From the NCBI GenBank assembly GCA_000387965.1, contig APJZ01000002.1, positions 120,001 to 152,000 on the forward strand: 32,000 bases of DNA. Direction: 5' to 3'. The position numbers and the translations under genes are program-made. Source of the stretch: Candidatus Nanobsidianus stetteri. Its GTDB lineage: Archaea; Nanobdellota; Nanobdellia; Nanobdellales; Nanobdellaceae. The notes beneath the pieces were generated by a model that saw only the letters and a program-made list of their open reading frames with translations, was not told where the DNA came from and searched no databases. Of this stretch, positions 5,453 through 25,693 are shown piece after piece. Position 1 is the first letter of the stretch. Every line of letters begins with the position of its first letter.

Positions 5453-5495
5453 AATTTACATATATTTTAAAAATGTTTTATAAATATTGCATATT

Positions 5496-6005
5496 ATGGT
5501 ATCTGTAAGAGATGTAAATGGTCAAATATTTGTAGAAAGATTAGCTAAATATTTATTCGAAAATTATAAAGATATAATAAAACCACCAAGTTGGGCATTT
5601 TTTATTAAAACAGGACCAGATAAAGAAAGGAATCCAGACTTTCCAGCGGATGTAGATTATAATGGAGGGCCTGGATGGTGGTATTATAGAGCAGCATCAA
5701 TTTTAAGAAAAGTATATTTATATGGACCAATTGGTGTTTCTAGATTAAGGAGAAAATATTCTGGATTAAGAAAAAGAGGAATGGAACCTGGAAAAGTTGT
5801 AAAGGGATATGGAAAATTAATAAGAGAAATATTACATCAATTGGAAAATGCTGGATTGGTTATGAAAGTAAATGAAGGAAAGAAAAAAGGAAGAGTTGTA
5901 ACAAATAATGGAAGAAGTTTATTAGATAAATTAGCTAACGAAATATACAAAGAATTAAATAATGAAAATAAGAATTTAATTGATTATATAAAGTCTGTTT
6001 CATGA
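5496..6005 (+). CDS. rps19e: Ribosomal protein S19e
   Basis: The track ORF starts at a TTG at 5487; the first ATG is 5496 (MVSVRDV...). The motifs WYYRAASILRKVYLYGPIGVSRLRRKY and ILHQLENAGLV are typical of S19e. Confidence 0.9.
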   Translation: MVSVRDVNGQIFVERLAKYLFENYKDIIKPPSWAFFIKTGPDKERNPDFPADVDYNGGPGWWYYRAASILRKVYLYGPIGVSRLRRKYSGLRKRGMEPGKVVKGYGKLIREILHQLENAGLVMKVNEGKKKGRVVTNNGRSLLDKLANEIYKELNNENKNLIDYIKSVS

Positions 6006-6472
6006 AGGGTATAAGTTTATGGGTTGAATTTTTAATATATACTTTATTTGCTCTTTCTATATTATCCTTAGTTATATATTTTGTTCATTTAACAATTCAA
6101 AATCAACAGGATGAATTAAACTTAAAATATATTGTAAATTTATTGACAAATTTAAATTATCAAATAGAAACAATTGGATCTTGTTATTCATGTAATTATA
6201 AAGTTTATGATAATTTACCACCAAAAACAATTATATATATTTATCCGGGAGAAATAATGTGTGTATATTATTCTACCGTAAATTATTCTTTACAAGTTCC
6301 ACCATATATAAATTTAAATATAACTCAATTATCTTCATATGATTATCAATATAATTTTACTATTAATACAATCCCCTTTAATATATTAAATAGTTCCAAT
6401 CTTACAATTACAGATAATTTATGTTTATTATTAGATAAGAATGAATCTGGTTTATATATTAGTTTGTGTTAG
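6002..6472 (+). CDS. Hypothetical exported protein with prepilin-like (class III type) N-terminus
   Basis: 156 aa. MKG then ISLWVEFLIYTLFALSILSLVIYFV, i.e. a [KR]-G site followed by a hydrophobic stretch. Asn/Tyr-rich with several Cys and N-x-S/T sequons. ATGA overlap with the S19e stop. Confidence 0.45.
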   Translation: MKGISLWVEFLIYTLFALSILSLVIYFVHLTIQNQQDELNLKYIVNLLTNLNYQIETIGSCYSCNYKVYDNLPPKTIIYIYPGEIMCVYYSTVNYSLQVPPYINLNITQLSSYDYQYNFTINTIPFNILNSSNLTITDNLCLLLDKNESGLYISLC

Positions 6473-6909
6473 ATACAAAAGAAATTAATATAATAACTAT
6501 TAGAATTATTTACATTATAACAAAAACAAACCCAATTTGGTGGATTATATAAGATAAAGCTTTCATTACAATATTTTAATATACTCTGATTTACAACAAA
6601 AAATCCTTTAAAATAATAACAACAATTTATATTACTTCCACTACATTTTGGAATTGATAAATTATATGAAGATATACAAATGAAGGAAAAATTATAATTA
6701 ATTTCATTTGTATAATTTTCAAAATATGATGTATAATTTGATATATAATTATATCCAAAATTTTGATATATGTATATTATTTGGTCTTCAAAATTTTTTC
6801 CTATTAAATTTGGATTAATATTCTTTATTGGAGAAAGATTATAATATGTAATAAAAGATAAAATAATAATAATTGCAATTGTTGCTAATAATATATATTG
6901 AGATTTCAT
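6469..6909 (-). CDS. Hypothetical exported protein with prepilin-like N-terminus, Cys-rich C-terminus
   Basis: 146 aa. MKS then QYILLATIAIIIILSFITYY. C-terminal CSGSNINCCYYF...CNESF...WVCFCYN...FFCI. 4-nt overlap with the upstream gene. Confidence 0.45.
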   Translation of the reverse strand: MKSQYILLATIAIIIILSFITYYNLSPIKNINPNLIGKNFEDQIIYIYQNFGYNYISNYTSYFENYTNEINYNFSFICISSYNLSIPKCSGSNINCCYYFKGFFVVNQSILKYCNESFILYNPPNWVCFCYNVNNSNSYYINFFCI

Positions 6910-7226
6910 CTAAATATAATTAATATATATGGATTAAAATAATTTTGGCCCGCATATAAATATTCAAATATTGGTTCATAATTTTCTATATATGTTGAAT
7001 TTACTTGTTTTCCAAAATAACATATTGTAATATTGTTGTTTGTTAGATTTATTATTTCATAGATATATAAATTATTATTACATGAAGAGTTTAGATAAAT
7101 AAAATCATTTGGATTAAAATTATAAATATTATAATTGCTAGCTTTACCGTAATAAGTATATAAAAAGAAAAATGTCAATAATATTATTGAAAATGCTAAT
7201 TCTACTAAAATTATCCAACTCCTCAT
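6906..7226 (-). CDS. Hypothetical exported protein with prepilin-like N-terminus
   Basis: 106 aa. MRS then WIILVELAFSIILLTFFFLY. Asn/Tyr-rich. 4-nt overlaps on both sides. Confidence 0.45.
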   Translation of the reverse strand: MRSWIILVELAFSIILLTFFFLYTYYGKASNYNIYNFNPNDFIYLNSSCNNNLYIYEIINLTNNNITICYFGKQVNSTYIENYEPIFEYLYAGQNYFNPYILIIFR

Positions 7227-9433
7227 TTTATATATATTGTTAATTGATCTTTATATAATGTATTTACCATTGTTGTATTTAAAACATATATATTAAAGTT
7301 TTCTGAATATGTATAATTATTTACAATATTCCCTTGATATATTTTCCCATTAAATATTGTTATGTTTAAATTATTAAAATAAAAATATGCCTTTTGATAA
7401 TCTTTAGATAAATTAATTAAATTATTTAGATTTATTACATTTATTGGTTTAATATAATTTATTTCAATATATGGAATTTGAGTAGAAAATGCTAAATATA
7501 ATGCAGTCTGTTTATCTAAATTTGGATTTGAATATAGATAGAAGTAATAATTTTGATAATTATAATTATCATTTAATGTTGCATTTAAGAAATAAAGATT
7601 ATTATAATTATCAAAAGAGGAAACATATGAAATATTTATTATAGGATTATAATTTGTATATAATATTGAATCTAGATAGTATGTGTTGCATGTTGTTATT
7701 TGTATACAACTCCCTATCATGCATGTAGTTGTTGTTGTGCATATTTGGTATCTTCTCATTAATGTTATTCCATTTTCATAATAATAGTAGAGATATCCAT
7801 TATATAAATTGTTTAGATTAAATATTTTGTTATAAATATTTGTTGAGTCTAAAACAAAACCATAATTAGATTGTGAAGTATTCCAAAATATCATATTATT
7901 TGAATTATAGTATTTTTCTGTATTAAATACATACCAATAAGTATTAGAAAATATTATATCCTTTATAGATAGATTTGTAGAATTATATAGATATAATAAA
8001 GCTAATGAATCATTATAAACATAAGGAGTTAAATTATAAGACTCATATTCAGAAGTATAAAAAGAAAATCCAATAAACAGATATAAATTATATATATTTA
8101 AATAACTTGATGGAATAGAATAATAGTTATTACCCATATCTGTTAAATAAGAAAAATATGCTAAGTTATTATTATATATTGTAAAGTTGTTATTAGAATT
8201 AGACGATCCTAGATCATTATATTGAGAAAAATCATAAGTTAAATTTGGACCCATAATAAATTTATAATTATAAGTAAAATTTGGTTGATAAATTACTTTT
8301 ATATTTGGCATTACATTATATGGAATTAAATTTATATAATATGCATAAATATTTTGACCATATATTTGTAAATTATCATTATTGTCATTATTATAACAAT
8401 AATAAACATATAAAGAATTTGGATTTCCAAAAGATGGCAGATTTATATTACAATTATCTCCTAATTGTATATAAGCATTATAATAACCATTATTTTGAAT
8501 ATTAAATAATATTAAATAATTACCTTTTGGAATACTATTTTTATAAGTAATTTCGAAGCTATTATCTTGTGTACTATAAATATGATCTCCATAGTTTATA
8601 TATGAAATAGTTATAGGAGTATTATTTGTCCAATATTGACTAAACTGTTGATAATTTTGATAACTAAAATTATCATATACTGGAAATATTTCTTTTCCAT
8701 CAACTGAATAACTATTTATCCCATTTATTGGAGAAATATTTAATATTACATAACCATATGGAGATATATTTAAATCAACCCAAATTCCATAAGCATTATT
8801 ATTAAAACTATTGCAATTTAAATTATTATTTAAATAACAAAAATAATAATTATTTCCATTTAAATCTTTTACAGATAGATTATAACCATTCTGTAACCAA
8901 TAAAAAATATCAGTGGAAGTTATAAATACAGGATAATTAATTAATTGTTGATTTGATGGATTTGAAACATTAATTAAAACATATTGAGGTTGATTATTAC
9001 TTATATTAAAATTTAGAAAATTTGCATAAAAGAATATTCCAACATTTGGATCTAGATATGTATTATTTGTATTATTTAATACTCCAGAATAATTTGTTAA
9101 AAAGGATATATTTAATGGATAATAAATTGGAAATGATGTACAAAAATCGTTATATGCATTTTCAAGAATTAAATTATAATATATTTGTGAATTTTGTAAG
9201 CATTGATAATACATAGATAATGGTATTGAAACATTTAATGATAATAAATAATATTTGCTCTCAATTGAATTCAATATATTATTTATATAATTATTATAAT
9301 AATTTATTTGATTATAATTATTGATATTGTTTATTATGTATCCTCTATACATTGCTAAATAGAATGTTAAAAATGAAATAAAAATTACTATTGCAATTAC
9401 ACCTTCTATTTCCTTTACTATCCCTCTAACCAT
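7223..9433 (-). CDS. Large Asn/Tyr-rich putative surface protein with N-terminal prepilin-like or anchor segment
   Basis: 736 aa. MVRG then IVKEIEGVIAIVIFISFLTFYLAMY. The rest is dominated by N and Y with very many N-x-S/T sequons. Its start overlaps the ATPase stop by 16 nt. Confidence 0.5.
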   Translation of the reverse strand: MVRGIVKEIEGVIAIVIFISFLTFYLAMYRGYIINNINNYNQINYYNNYINNILNSIESKYYLLSLNVSIPLSMYYQCLQNSQIYYNLILENAYNDFCTSFPIYYPLNISFLTNYSGVLNNTNNTYLDPNVGIFFYANFLNFNISNNQPQYVLINVSNPSNQQLINYPVFITSTDIFYWLQNGYNLSVKDLNGNNYYFCYLNNNLNCNSFNNNAYGIWVDLNISPYGYVILNISPINGINSYSVDGKEIFPVYDNFSYQNYQQFSQYWTNNTPITISYINYGDHIYSTQDNSFEITYKNSIPKGNYLILFNIQNNGYYNAYIQLGDNCNINLPSFGNPNSLYVYYCYNNDNNDNLQIYGQNIYAYYINLIPYNVMPNIKVIYQPNFTYNYKFIMGPNLTYDFSQYNDLGSSNSNNNFTIYNNNLAYFSYLTDMGNNYYSIPSSYLNIYNLYLFIGFSFYTSEYESYNLTPYVYNDSLALLYLYNSTNLSIKDIIFSNTYWYVFNTEKYYNSNNMIFWNTSQSNYGFVLDSTNIYNKIFNLNNLYNGYLYYYYENGITLMRRYQICTTTTTCMIGSCIQITTCNTYYLDSILYTNYNPIINISYVSSFDNYNNLYFLNATLNDNYNYQNYYFYLYSNPNLDKQTALYLAFSTQIPYIEINYIKPINVINLNNLINLSKDYQKAYFYFNNLNITIFNGKIYQGNIVNNYTYSENFNIYVLNTTMVNTLYKDQLTIYIK

Positions 9434-10716
9434 AATCTCTTTCTAATTAAAGTTGGGTCTGAACCCCCATGCCAAGAAACCCTAGGTTTCATTTGAACTG
9501 GATATATTCTCTCAGATTTATCATCTAAAATTAAAGCGGCACCCTTTTTCTTTGGTAAATTATCATTCATATATATATCAATATCCTGTGCAGTAAAATT
9601 TTTCATTATTTCATTTAAAGATTTTAGATCTCTTTCTGCAGTTACTCTATGTGATATAACTATATCACTTTGGGTAATTACATCTGTATGCATTTTACCA
9701 GGTTGTTGAGTTGCCAATACTAATGTTATACCTGGTTGTCTTCCTTCTCTTATTATTTGTATTAATGGTTCTGTTGCTGGTGTAATTGAATCGTTTGGAA
9801 GTGCTTCATGTGCCTCATCAATTGCAATCCATATTAATGGAAATTCTCTTGTACCCAATTCTTTTGAAATATATATTTCTTCCAATTCTTCTACCTTCCT
9901 ATATATTAATCTTTGGTAAAATATTTTCTTAGATATTAATCCAATTACTAAGTTTTTTATCGACCATCCGCCAGTTATTGCAGTATATAGAGATATATCT
10001 AATATATTTATATAACCCGGCTTTGTTAAATTTCTTATACTTTCAGCTTTTTCAGAAAATAATCCCCAGCTATCTGCATTTTCAAAGTATGTAGTTATAG
10101 CATTTTTCATATTACTATCTATATCCAATTTTTCTGTATAACTTATTATATCTTGTATAGAATATCCATTATTATTTTCTTTCATCCTTTTTATAATTTT
10201 TTGTATATATAATGCAATATTTGATGTTGGATCCAAATTAAATGTTAAAACCCATTCAATTCCTGATAGATCTGCAGGATTTAATTGAAAAACGTCATCT
10301 ATAGGAATATTTATATTTCTATATTCATCTAATAAACCTTTAGGAACTATTATTCTACAATTTTTTATTGATTTTGGTTTTAAACCCCATTTTTCCAATA
10401 ATTCAGCATCTCTATAATTTGGAAATTTCATTGTCCAAAATATTCCCATTGTATCAAATATTAATCCTGAGAAATTATTTAATAAATCTTTTTCAAGATC
10501 TGATAAACTTTCAAATATTGAAGCTAATGTATAACTTTTTCCTTGTCCTCTTTTTCCAGCAATTAATATTAAATGTGGTAGATTTACATCTAAATAAACT
10601 GTATTTGCTAAAGATAAAGCATTTTCCATTTTTATATATTCTTTACCTATGAAAATTGAACCTTTTAAACCATATTTTTCTAAATCATCCAATGATCTTC
10701 CTATAATAATATCCAT
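9418..10716 (-). CDS. HerA/FtsK-superfamily P-loop ATPase (DUF87 / COG0433-like)
   Basis: 432 aa. Walker A is HLILIAGKRGQGKSYTL and Walker B is LIWIAIDEAHEAL. These are followed by EGRQPGITLVLATQQPGKMHTDVITQSDIVISHRV and C-terminal RVSWHGG, the pattern of archaeal HerA-like ATPases. No TM segment seen. Confidence 0.7.
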   Translation of the reverse strand: MDIIIGRSLDDLEKYGLKGSIFIGKEYIKMENALSLANTVYLDVNLPHLILIAGKRGQGKSYTLASIFESLSDLEKDLLNNFSGLIFDTMGIFWTMKFPNYRDAELLEKWGLKPKSIKNCRIIVPKGLLDEYRNINIPIDDVFQLNPADLSGIEWVLTFNLDPTSNIALYIQKIIKRMKENNNGYSIQDIISYTEKLDIDSNMKNAITTYFENADSWGLFSEKAESIRNLTKPGYINILDISLYTAITGGWSIKNLVIGLISKKIFYQRLIYRKVEELEEIYISKELGTREFPLIWIAIDEAHEALPNDSITPATEPLIQIIREGRQPGITLVLATQQPGKMHTDVITQSDIVISHRVTAERDLKSLNEIMKNFTAQDIDIYMNDNLPKKKGAALILDDKSERIYPVQMKPRVSWHGGSDPTLIRKRLWLEG

Positions 10717-10794
10717 AATCTTATGTAAACTTTTATAATTAATAAATTAATAATGCAAAGTGAATATTTAGATATACTCTTAAAAAATAAATTA

Positions 10795-10865
10795 TGCACC
10801 CGCCGGGATTTGAACCCGGGCCGCGGGCTTGGAAGGCCCGCATCCTGCCACTAGACGACGGGTGC
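10795..10865 (-). tRNA. tRNA-Gly (anticodon UCC)
   Basis: Minus strand reads GCACCCG-TC-GTCT-AGTGGCA-GGAT-G-CGGGC-CTTCCAA-GCCCG-CGGC-CCGGG-TTCAAAT-CCCGG-CGGGTGC-A. All four stems pair. No CCA encoded and no intron. Confidence 0.9.
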
Positions 10866-11084
10866 AATATATATTCTTAATAAAGTTAATATTATTAAAC
10901 TTTGTAATCCTACTAATTAAAATATCTCGAGAGAAATAATGATGATATTTTAATTTATTTAGATGAAAATATGGTTAGTTATAAACAATATTATAAAAAT
11001 TATAATATTTATACTGTATATTATAAATTATATTTTATAGAAAATATTGACAAGAAATTAAAAAAGAAGATTTTATAAAGGCAA

Positions 11085-11156
11085 TGGACCCGCCGGGATT
11101 TGAACCCGGGATCTCCGGCTAGCCAGGCCGACATCCTACGACTAGACTACGGGCCC
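11085..11156 (-). tRNA. tRNA-Ala (anticodon GGC)
   Basis: Minus strand reads GGGCCCG-TA-GTCT-AGTCGTA-GGAT-G-TCGGC-CTGGCTA-GCCGG-AGATC-CCGGG-TTCAAAT-CCCGG-CGGGTCC-A. The G3:U70 pair and A73 fit alanine identity. No CCA encoded. Confidence 0.85.
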
Positions 11157-11247
11157 AATAAATTCTAAATATCCTTTAAGTTTATATATAATATGCTAGA
11201 ATGGTATATACTTTTGTATTATAAATATCCCTTACTTTAAATTCATC

Positions 11248-15334: not shown

Positions 15335-15628
15335 TTATCCCAATGGGTAATTATAATTTGTACCATTTATATTGCATGTGATGTTTGTTGAATTATAATA
15401 ACAATCTACATATGTTTGATTTATACTATTCAAATAACATTGAGAGAAATTATAAACCTGCCCAATAAATGCATAATTCATCATATTTTGTGCACAGTCT
15501 GCATATGCTATAATATTTGAATCCATATGAATAATATCTGTTGATAAATATTGTGTAGTGGCTACTATTGATGCTGCTATAATTAATGCTGGTAATATAA
15601 ACATTGGTAGGGTAGATTCTAACTTCAT
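15335..15628 (-). CDS. Small exported or anchored Asn/Tyr/Cys-rich protein
   Basis: 97 aa. The hydrophobic N-terminus is MKLESTLPMFILPALIIAASIVATT. There are five Cys and sequons such as NFS, NQT, NST, NIT and NGT. Composition resembles the 6.0-9.4 kb cluster proteins. Confidence 0.4.
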   Translation of the reverse strand: MKLESTLPMFILPALIIAASIVATTQYLSTDIIHMDSNIIAYADCAQNMMNYAFIGQVYNFSQCYLNSINQTYVDCYYNSTNITCNINGTNYNYPLG

Positions 15629-24631: not shown

Positions 24632-24652
24632 TTTTGTGTGCATATATATAAT

Positions 24653-25693
24653 ATGGCGTTAGCTGCTTATGTTAATCAAACATTAGATACACTTTTAAAT
24701 AGATATATAAGTGAAATTAGTAGATTAAAAGGACTTACTACAGATGATTTTGCAAAAGAATCACTTGATGCAGATATAAAGACATATTCTGAAATTATGG
24801 GAGCTATGAAAGAAGTTTCCTGTCAACTTGAAGGGCAATTGGATCCTAAAGTTAATAGTGATTTGAAGTATGTACTTGAAAATTTTGTAAGTAAAGCATT
24901 AAAAGATAATGAGGATCTCTCTCAATTATATAGAAAAATTTTAGATGCATATAATCAAGAAATATTTAGTAAAGGAGATGAGGCTCTTGTGATTTTACTA
25001 TCTAAAATATATTGGGAAACTCTTAAAATCTTGGGTAATCCAGATCCAATAAATGGACAATATTATCGTAATGTAAGTAGACAAGATAGAGAAAATGCAG
25101 CAAAGAATAAAGGTATAATTGAAGAATTATTAGGAGAAGCTTTACTTAGACATTGGACATCAAGAGGTAAGAAAATAACAAAAGGAGAAATTATGAATAA
25201 TTTAGCAAGTCGTGTAGTTTCATTCTATAAAGCTTGGGATGGAGTAAAAGGTAAAATAGTAAGTGATATAGAGTGGTTAACACCAAGTATAGAAGTAAAA
25301 GATGCTGTTGAGAAGTTAGTAATGGAATTAGATAAAAGCTACTTATCATTTATACAAGGATTAATAATAGCAGCATATAACAAACGTTCAGATCCAGAGC
25401 ATATAATAACAGTGCTAAAATACCTTAACGGTAAGGACTTCTTTAAGAATGTATTTAGTGAAATTTACAACGATATTGGAAGTTATATAAATCAATTACA
25501 ACCGCAAATAGCTCAATATTTACAGCTAAATCAACCAGCTGGTCAACAACAAGGACAGCAAGGTAATCAACCTCAACAGCCCCCACAAGTGCAAAATCAA
25601 CCAATGCAACCTAAAATATCAAATCTTAGTTCACCATTACAAAAGAATAATTTAAATATACCGCAACCAAAGGTTATAAAATCTTCACCATAG
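24653..25693 (+). CDS. Hypothetical alpha-helical protein with Gln/Pro-rich C-terminal tail
   Basis: The track ORF starts at GTG 24638; the first ATG is 24653 (MALAAYVNQTL...). No signal peptide, TM segment or known motif seen. The tail reads QPAGQQQGQQGNQPQQPPQVQNQPMQPK. Confidence 0.6.
   Translation: MALAAYVNQTLDTLLNRYISEISRLKGLTTDDFAKESLDADIKTYSEIMGAMKEVSCQLEGQLDPKVNSDLKYVLENFVSKALKDNEDLSQLYRKILDAYNQEIFSKGDEALVILLSKIYWETLKILGNPDPINGQYYRNVSRQDRENAAKNKGIIEELLGEALLRHWTSRGKKITKGEIMNNLASRVVSFYKAWDGVKGKIVSDIEWLTPSIEVKDAVEKLVMELDKSYLSFIQGLIIAAYNKRSDPEHIITVLKYLNGKDFFKNVFSEIYNDIGSYINQLQPQIAQYLQLNQPAGQQQGQQGNQPQQPPQVQNQPMQPKISNLSSPLQKNNLNIPQPKVIKSSP

Follow-up and report, generated by a model that had tools for sequence, protein, structure and literature searches.

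Candidate type IV pilin-like glycoproteins encoded beside a HerA-clade ATPase in Candidatus Nanobsidianus stetteri

A stretch of 32,000 nucleotides from Candidatus Nanobsidianus stetteri (contig APJZ01000002.1, positions 120,001 to 152,000; hereafter, the window) carries a compact block of five genes, and the question that it raises is why a gene for an ATPase of the HerA type should stand beside four genes for small and large surface proteins. In an earlier note, made from the sequence alone, the ATPase was proposed to be the motor of an undescribed surface filament or cell-contact system, with the four proteins as its pilin-like subunits. The open reading frames (ORFs) themselves were found to have the sizes (Table 1) and overlaps described there (16, 4, and 4 nt between the co-directional genes, and 4 nt at the stops of the convergent pair), but our analysis points to a different relation between them. 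The four proteins, a large one and three small ones termed p106, p146, and p156, are probably divergent type IV (T4) pilin-like glycoproteins that would be assembled by a canonical type IV pilus (T4P) machine encoded elsewhere in the genome, the adjacency of the ATPase gene being most simply an inherited gene order.

The strongest evidence came from p156, whose gene is convergent with the other four genes of the block and whose N-terminus reads MKG followed by ISLWVEFLIYT. Structure prediction, one of the checks that had been suggested for the pilin fold, returned a pilin-type helix-plus-sheet "lollipop" for this protein: the AlphaFold2 (AF2) model, built on an alignment of 19 sequences (predicted local distance difference test, pLDDT, 90.2; predicted template modelling score, pTM, 0.76), consists of one 54-residue helix (residues 6–59) followed by eight strands. 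In the model, the helix runs about 30 residues past the part that lies in the membrane and rests against the sheet, the helix-on-sheet layout typical of type IV pilins. Residues E9, F10, L11, and Y13 are invariant, as are four of the five Cys, and the pairs Cys61/Cys64 and Cys141/Cys156 could form two disulfides.

A profile search with p156 among 1.84 billion representatives recovered only 34 relatives. Those beyond the family (Nanopusillaceae) included DPANN proteins of 170–207 aa that start with [KR][G/A/S]-Q-V-W-V-E-T-V-I-Y-T-L-I, the N-terminal motif of the matched DPANN pilins being [KR][GAS] followed by QVWVETVIYTLI. Pfam scans of these distant relatives gave no pilin family, except for one weak match to DUF7289. 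Alignment with hhalign of p156 against this QVWVET pilin family (A6) gave a probability of 97.7%, with an E-value of 1.7e-12 over 121 columns, and placed the Glu of p156 on E+5 of the QVWVET pilins. One of the relatives, P0223 of family A6, lies immediately upstream of a T2SSE gene in locus L094, where a Pilin_N/LamG (ConA-like-lectin) protein, four class III pilins (with class III protein starts MNKRG, MEKRG, and ...KRG followed by ISP...), and P0223 are followed in a row by T2SSE, T2SSF, and T2SSF. Another relative, P0215, sits in a pilin-gene cluster. The profile homology and the L094 context thus make p156 a divergent representative of pilins that occur in canonical T4P operons.

A second locus, L088, connects the whole block to such a machine. 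Its ATPase is 67% identical to that of the window, and its genes follow the order HtpX, ATPase, a 541-aa homologue of the large protein (blastp E 6e-14, hidden Markov model (HMM) E 3e-73), proteins of 92 and 130 aa, two convergent T2SSF genes, and a divergent T2SSE gene. The 92- and 130-aa proteins are like p106 and p146 at their termini, with a similarity to the p106 and p146 HMMs that was not significant (E 0.03–4.5 only); the 130-aa protein, at the position of p146, reads MKSQLMIIATAAII..., has a CYC motif, and adjoins T2SSF. The finding of a homologous block directly beside T2SSF, T2SSF, and T2SSE speaks against a filament driven by the HerA-type motor. In the simplest history for these arrangements, a T4P locus would have become the neighbour of an HtpX-ATPase block of the kind that is widespread in DPANN; later, in Nanopusillaceae, both outer parts would have moved off, leaving the ATPase gene beside the pilin genes.

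A separate observation concerns a contig of 26% G+C (L104, positions 7040–9996), in which a 169-aa protein, MRFQSLFLEYILL..., and a 96-aa protein, MRGQLLLEQMLY..., are encoded directly upstream of a T2SSE gene and a T2SSF fragment. Their N-termini (MRFQSLFLEY... and MRGQLLLEQ...) are short-leader and Glu-bearing, and the pair looks, from its sequence, like a second pilin set with the same N-terminal style beside a canonical motor. The 169-aa protein was considered as a p156 homologue and rejected: it has the N-terminal motif in common with p156, but the overall similarity was not significant.

What is known of nanoarchaeal surface structures also argues against the motor role first proposed for the ATPase. 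Nanoarchaeota reportedly possess an archaellum, two T4P systems, and four homologues of FlaJ/TadC (PMC6142677), and for one clade of nanoarchaeal T4P ATPases no cognate pilins could be assigned (Makarova et al. 2016, PMC4858521). The genes of the block probably encode the pilins that have been missing for this T4P machinery, and the pilin-like proteins are likely used for host attachment. In Nanobdella, filaments of 7–10 nm and filaments at host contact sites have been described, and the genes MJ1_0636–0640 are not mentioned in the main text of that paper (10.1101/2023.10.27.564410).

The other three surface proteins share several features with p156. Each of the four contains one N-terminal hydrophobic segment and none further (KD19 maxima 2.3–2.5), placed after the starts MVRG (large), MRS (p106), MKS (p146), and MKG (p156), and this layout is kept in all orthologues. 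Alignments of the orthologues revealed an invariant Glu at +6 from the G/S, that is, at position 10 in the large protein and at position 9 in p106 and p156, whereas p146 is without it and has a Gln directly after the Ser instead. Regarding composition, the four proteins contain 11–19% Asn, 11–15% Tyr, and 2–4% Lys, whereas the remaining genes of the window have about 6%, 5%, and 11%; with Asn and Tyr high and Lys low relative to these genes, the bias is therefore not simply due to AT pressure. N-x-S/T sequons exceed the number expected from composition by 1.5- to 2.7-fold (26 vs. 17.9 in the large protein, 4 vs. 1.7 in p106, 8 vs. 3.0 in p146, and 6 vs. 2.5 in p156), and Cys residues number 10, 2, 8, and 5, respectively. 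As judged from the sequences, such a composition fits extracellular, N-glycosylated, disulfide-bonded proteins. The prepilin-like N-termini claimed in the earlier note were therefore upheld for all four proteins as regards the motif and the single transmembrane segment, the case for a pilin being strong with p156, a matter of genomic context with the large protein, and at the level of the motif with p106 and p146.

The large protein, whose sequence agrees with 100% identity with one named "putative membrane or secreted protein" in Candidatus Nanobsidianus stetteri, combines its short leader with a hydrophobic helix that holds the conserved Glu. Besides the L088 protein, its homologues are confined to Nanopusillaceae, and the gene is fast-evolving. 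The better-predicted parts of its AF2 model gave weak Foldseek matches to jelly-roll folds of the carbohydrate-binding module (CBM) types CBM35 and CBM29 (E ~1e-3), which are suggestive only; the protein may possibly be a lectin- or CBM-like adhesin. No homology was detected by hhalign between it and the LamG pilin of L094. Protein p106 starts with MRS followed by WIILVELAF, has a single N-terminal transmembrane segment with Glu9 and two Cys conserved across its orthologues, and gave no Pfam match; p146 starts with MKS followed by QYILLATIA. More generally, scans of the four membrane proteins against Pfam, NCBIfam, PADLOC, and PHROGs returned nothing meaningful.

Several results weigh against the assignment as pilins assembled by a distant T4P machine. 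With a threshold as loose as E<=10, the Pfam models Pilin_N (PF07790) and Class_IIIsignal (PF04021) and the archaellin model still failed to match any of the four families; a Foldseek comparison of the p156 model with the PDB found no solved pilin (best E 0.067); the AF2 model obtained for the large protein cannot be relied on (pLDDT 49); and the HMMs of p106 and p146 had no significant relatives outside the family. In addition, no recognisable prepilin peptidase has been identified in Nst1 or N. equitans (PMC4858521), because of which processing of the leaders is doubtful. To these can be added two points on the side of the ATPase: the overlap between its gene and that of the large protein is kept in every block-bearing genome, even where ATPase identity has fallen to 66%, as well as in L088 and L023, and in locus L090 (3749–13648) an orthologue 50% identical to the ATPase lies amid a Peptidase_A24 gene and six pilin genes.

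Part of this evidence would be expected if the four proteins stayed uncleaved and were held by their N-termini as type II membrane glycoproteins of the cell surface (adhesins or S-layer-associated proteins, for instance), merely derived from pilins or resembling them, and not filament subunits. The missing peptidase and the lack of a match to any curated pilin family or solved pilin structure favour such an explanation, and so do the leaders of just 2–3 residues, the Ser at the -1 position, instead of Gly/Ala, in two of the four proteins, and the occurrence of class III signal peptides on proteins that do not form pili, e.g., the sugar-binding proteins of Sulfolobus (PMC4858521). However, an invariant charged Glu inside the hydrophobic segment of three unrelated-looking proteins is a hallmark of subunit-subunit contacts in T4 filaments and would be unfavourable in a plain anchor; the predicted p156 helix extends well beyond the membrane onto the sheet; and homologues are found in T4P operons, with the L088 block abutting T2SSE/F. 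We thus consider plain membrane anchors distinctly unlikely. As an observation in its own right, the leaders of 5–10 residues found in homologous DPANN pilins (among P0208–P0230) are longer than those of the four window proteins, and the short leaders, together with the lack of a reported prepilin peptidase in Nst1 and N. equitans (PMC4858521), suggest that these could be pilins that are not proteolytically processed.

As for the ATPase, its description as a soluble protein of the HerA/DUF87 type proved correct, with matches to the Pfam families DUF87 (E 3.8e-11; 44 bits, cut-off 23.2) and HerA_C (E 1.4e-5; 24.4 bits, cut-off 22) and no transmembrane-like segment. The motifs GKRGQGKS (Walker A), IAIDEAHE (Walker B), and LATQQPG are invariant in 23 orthologues, and the roughly 80 invariant columns include GKRGxGKS, FDTMGxxWTMK, DEAHE, REGRQPG, QQPG, SHR, and WHGG. 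Its sequence places the protein in the HerA clade of the FtsK-HerA superfamily. Its best PDB matches were HerA chains (8xau, 8wiv, and 4d2i), followed by EssC, FtsK, and STIV B204. The HerA alignments covered only its C-terminal half (residues ~250–405), and Walker A starts at residue 54, with only ~45 residues before it, so a full HAS barrel is lacking. Models of known motors scored far under their cut-offs, as was the case for CedD (15.6 bits vs. 600 in NCBIfam), EssC, and PilT; there was no match to a T2SSE domain, pilT_fam reached 13.6 bits against a cut-off of 319 through the P-loop only, and PDB matches to GspE were not significant (E>0.6).

Two functional readings of these similarities were discarded. 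A role in defence was suggested by PADLOC, with mad8 as the best match (E 7e-22) in addition to several HerA models, but this represents generic similarity within the HerA clade, and it is no evidence of defence because the ATPase gene is single-copy, conserved in DPANN, and surrounded by housekeeping genes. A relationship with the Zot/pI-like assembly ATPases of filamentous phages was based on a weak Zot match (E 2e-4) restricted to the Walker B region.

The ATPase could also be a HerA DNA-repair helicase that works with NurA, Mre11, and Rad50 encoded elsewhere, a function in keeping with the annotation of the Nanobdella protein P0006 as "DNA double-strand break repair helicase HerA" and with the best PDB and NCBIfam similarities, which are to HerA proteins. 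However, the NCBIfam HerA models gave 29–47 bits against equivalog cut-offs of 800–970, again in the C-terminal part only, and the segment before Walker A leaves no room for a HAS barrel of ~100 aa. In addition, none of the 85 loci in which the neighbourhood of the ATPase gene was surveyed showed nurA, mre11, or rad50 beside it, and no recurrent cluster of neighbours corresponded to a nuclease, a point on which the interpretation in the earlier note was supported. We regard this function as highly improbable.

The same survey bears on the pairing of the ATPase with the pilin-like proteins. More than 4296 homologues of the ATPase, of ~435 aa, were found, with identities of 45–50% in Woesearchaeota, Pacearchaeota, Parvarchaeum, Haiyanarchaeum, and other Nanoarchaeota; a literature search for DUF87 in DPANN found nothing. 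The commonest neighbours in the 85 loci were genes for Trm5/Met_10-like proteins (37), HtpX (19), RFC (18), and a 318-aa membrane protein (13). Pilin-like genes were beside the ATPase gene in only 10–12 of the loci, all of them from close relatives, and in the ~65 distant loci ORFs with class III-like starts made up 3.2% of the genes at rank 1 and 4.3% at rank 2, compared with a background of 5.0%. With unrelated neighbours in other DPANN and no enrichment of class III proteins, the proposal of a HerA-class motor for an undescribed filament system gained no support. From its neighbours and distribution, the ATPase gene is therefore a DPANN-wide gene with its own role, and it appears to be near-universal, highly conserved, and independent of pilins across DPANN.

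The neighbourhoods also revealed an HtpX-type M48 membrane protease gene adjoining the ATPase gene in 19 of the 85 loci, from distant DPANN lineages, an association wider than that with pilin-like genes. HtpX is divergent from the ATPase in L024, L030, L035, L036, L039, L040, L045, L046, L054, L056, and L077, and co-directional with a 1-nt overlap in L023 and L088. This association may be functional or merely an inherited gene order.

A narrower form of the pairing has to be weighed, in which a HerA-clade ATPase was recruited to pilin-like proteins only in Nanopusillaceae and the lineage of L088 and L023, either as a cytoplasmic translocase that passes DNA or some other polymer through a T4P-like pseudopilus or along its side, or as a non-canonical assembly motor, as first proposed. 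The co-directional ATPase and large-protein genes overlap by 4–16 nt in all of the 12 or more genomes that carry the block, the L088 ATPase is encoded at the edge of a complete T4P locus, and the L090 orthologue lies between the Peptidase_A24 gene and the pilin genes. Because the overlap is kept throughout and the L090 context exists, a lineage-specific ATPase-pilin link still has to be reckoned with. There is, moreover, a precedent in the HerA-clade proteins CedB and CedD, which work with the T4P Ups pili in DNA import (PMC11868833). On the other hand, the distant loci gave no enrichment of pilin-like genes, the ATPase is the most conserved product of the block and is without lineage-specific divergence, and it has neither a transmembrane segment nor a VirB4-like N-terminal domain, in addition to the low scores with the CedD and HerA models given above. 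Furthermore, the conservation of gene order in the family is general and not particular to the ATPase and large-protein pair, and the pairing of the ATPase with HtpX is older and wider. Such a recruitment is possible but unlikely in our judgement. With regard to L090, we noted that the Peptidase_A24 gene is two genes upstream of the ATPase gene, whereas the six class III pilin genes (with starts such as MNKRG and MKKG followed by Q..E..) are downstream on the other strand, and that it was the sole case of this kind spotted by eye among the distant loci. A more specific form, in which the minimal ATPase, elsewhere in DPANN a housekeeping protein, would in Nanopusillaceae be the cytoplasmic partner of a T4P-like pilin set in the contact-dependent import of host DNA, nucleotides, or other polymers, with unprocessed "leaderless" pilins and a lost peptidase, is in our view a long shot.

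Conservation within the family was extensive. The five-gene block was present in every Nanopusillaceae locus with enough flanking sequence, including those of Nanopusillus, YN1, Nanobdella, Nanoclepta, and others, with sizes of 432, 531–753, 106–109, 146–148, and 156–157 aa, and this conservation indicates that these are real genes and not chance ORFs. The flanking genes for S19e, L37ae, ZPR1, SepF, prefoldin, and GlnRS are likewise collinear in the genomes of the family; with the whole region collinear, conserved adjacency therefore carries little specific information. The ATPase, which shares 99% identity with its counterpart in a Nanopusillus metagenome-assembled genome and 95% with the N. 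acidilobi 7A protein, is encoded by the slowest-evolving gene of the block, with identities of 95, 87, 80, and 66% to N. acidilobi, YN1, Nanobdella, and Nanoclepta. The corresponding values are 84, 54, 49, and 27% for the large protein and 90, 65, 57, and 30% for p156, and the four surface proteins as a group are fast-evolving, with identities of 27–41% to Nanoclepta.

Gene overlaps are similarly of little help in this genome. The p156 gene overlaps the upstream rps19e gene by 4 nt on the same strand, as it does in all members of the family, including Nanobdella and Nanoclepta, and the stop codon of the phosphoenolpyruvate (PEP) synthase gene (PpsA) directly precedes the start of the only T2SSF gene of the window, with a 0-nt gap. 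Since these pairs also overlap or abut, overlap is uninformative on shared function here, and the reservation expressed in the earlier note about compact genomes turned out to be decisive. As that note had also stated, no PilB/FlaI-class or peptidase gene is adjacent to the block: there was no T2SSE or Peptidase_A24 match among the ORFs of the window scanned against Pfam. The T2SSF gene lies ~19 kb from the block, with no T2SSE or pilin gene adjoining, and the T4P components are scattered in this genome. Its product is 28% identical (E 5e-25) to the 284-aa T2SSF protein encoded next to the L088 pilin-like block, which makes it a candidate partner of the pilin-like proteins, encoded apart from them. 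Regarding p156 itself, the overlap with rps19e suggests co-transcription with a highly expressed ribosomal gene, and p156 may be an abundant major subunit.

Taken together, we propose that the three small proteins and the large one are divergent type IV pilin-like glycoproteins specific to Nanopusillaceae, each with a basic leader of 2–3 residues, a hydrophobic helix, and a domain, rich in beta structure, that is predicted to be extracellular, N-glycosylated, and disulfide-bonded. Their extraction from the membrane and their polymerisation would be the work of a canonical T4P machine, composed of a PilB/FlaI-class T2SSE ATPase and FlaJ/TadC-class T2SSF platform proteins, whose genes lie elsewhere in the scrambled genome. 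One of the small proteins would be the main subunit, and the remaining small proteins, together with the large, possibly lectin-like protein, would form a priming or tip complex for host-cell attachment. The HerA-clade ATPase would be a soluble, probably hexameric NTPase of the translocase type, conserved across DPANN independently of the pilins, and its position next to the pilin-like genes, with which it is probably co-transcribed, would be the consequence of inherited order in a compact genome and not of a motor-filament pairing.

In bacteria, sets of minor pilins and tip proteins (GspH-I-J-K in the type II secretion system (T2SS); FimU-PilV-W-X with PilY1 of the type IVa pilus (T4aP)) prime assembly and cap the fibre. 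The block likewise has several small pilin-like proteins and one large protein, a likeness of gene content and not of sequence or structure, but unlike those sets it is archaeal, with products that are predicted to be N-glycosylated and are Cys-rich. A closer comparison is with the archaeal T4P operons of DPANN and Euryarchaeota (Makarova, Koonin & Albers 2016; L094), which contain pilins, T2SSE, and two TadC/FlaJ-like T2SSF proteins. In common with them, the block has several small class III-type proteins and one large protein with a putative beta-sandwich domain in a row, a profile-level homologue (p156) of the L094 pilin upstream of T2SSE, and, in L088, a position abutting T2SSF-T2SSF-T2SSE. 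It differs from them in that motor and platform genes are not adjacent in this genome, the leaders have 2–3 residues, no Pfam pilin family matches, homology between the large protein and the L094 LamG pilin was not detected, and a peptidase has not been identified in the lineage (PMC4858521).

With HerA, known from HerA-NurA end resection and from anti-phage HerA-Sir2/DUF4297 systems, the ATPase shares the DUF87 core, Walker A/B, the REGRQPG arginine-finger region, and TQQPG, whereas it lacks a full HAS barrel, has ~430 instead of 500–700 aa, and is encoded near no nuclease, Sir2, or NurA partner. Finally, the Ced/Ups system of Sulfolobales (CedB/CedD, CedA/A1/A2, and Ups pili; PMC11868833) also brings together a HerA-clade ATPase, T4P-type pilins, and cell-cell contact. 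However, CedB and CedD contain transmembrane and VirB4-like N-terminal domains and that system has VirB2-like pilins of its own, whereas the ATPase here is soluble and minimal, there is no polytopic CedA-like gene, and the neighbours in the block are single-pass proteins with large ectodomains.

The features of the window are collected in Table 1. An AT-rich, TATA-like stretch is found ~20 nt 5' of the ATPase start. The G+C content of the window is 22–25%, with values of 18–20% across 6–9 kb and 22–30% elsewhere; the dip at 6001–9000 covers the four surface-protein genes and matches their Asn/Tyr/Ile-rich composition. A fifth protein with a similar bias was noted further along the window, a small secreted glycoprotein of 97 aa with 12% Asn, 10% Tyr, 4 Cys, 5 sequons, and no Pfam match. 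Its position is kept in the family, as 98-aa ORFs starting MKSE... occur upstream of the ATPase gene in L001, L013, L015, and L005.

Table 1. Features of the window discussed in the text (positions within the 32,000-nt stretch).
Feature	Position	Strand	Basis or remark
DUF87/HerA-superfamily ATPase gene, 432 aa	9418-10716	-	Pfam DUF87 and HerA_C
Large pilin-like surface glycoprotein gene, 736 aa	7223-9433	-	N-terminal motif, sequons, Cys
p106, small pilin-like protein gene, 106 aa	6906-7226	-	Alignment of 11 orthologues
p146, small pilin-like protein gene, 146 aa	6469-6909	-	N-terminal motif, 8 Cys, 8 sequons
p156, type IV pilin-like protein gene, 156 aa	6002-6472	+	AF2 fold, profile homology
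rps19e (ribosomal protein S19e)	5487-6005	+	Pfam Ribosomal_S19e, E 3.2e-42
T2SSF (FlaJ/TadC-like) platform protein gene, 263 aa	29638-30429	+	Pfam T2SSF, E 3.8e-15
tRNA-Gly(TCC) and tRNA-Ala(GGC)	10794-11157	-	Upstream border of ATPase block
Small secreted glycoprotein gene, 97 aa, MKLESTLPMFILPALIIAASIV...	15335-15628	-	Single N-terminal transmembrane segment
351-aa ORF between L7Ae gene and GT1 glycosyltransferase gene	24638-25693	+	Without significant Pfam match

In conclusion, the inference of operons from gene overlap is unreliable in these compact genomes, and the analysis flags a HerA-like ATPase of ~435 aa that is conserved across DPANN and without a known function. Nanoarchaeota attach to and feed on other archaea, and T4P motors are encoded in their genomes, while the matching pilins had escaped identification. 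The block gives concrete pilin candidates, namely three small proteins and a fast-evolving large glycoprotein that may bind host glycans, and with them the attachment apparatus becomes testable in the cultivated Nanobdella and Nanopusillus systems.

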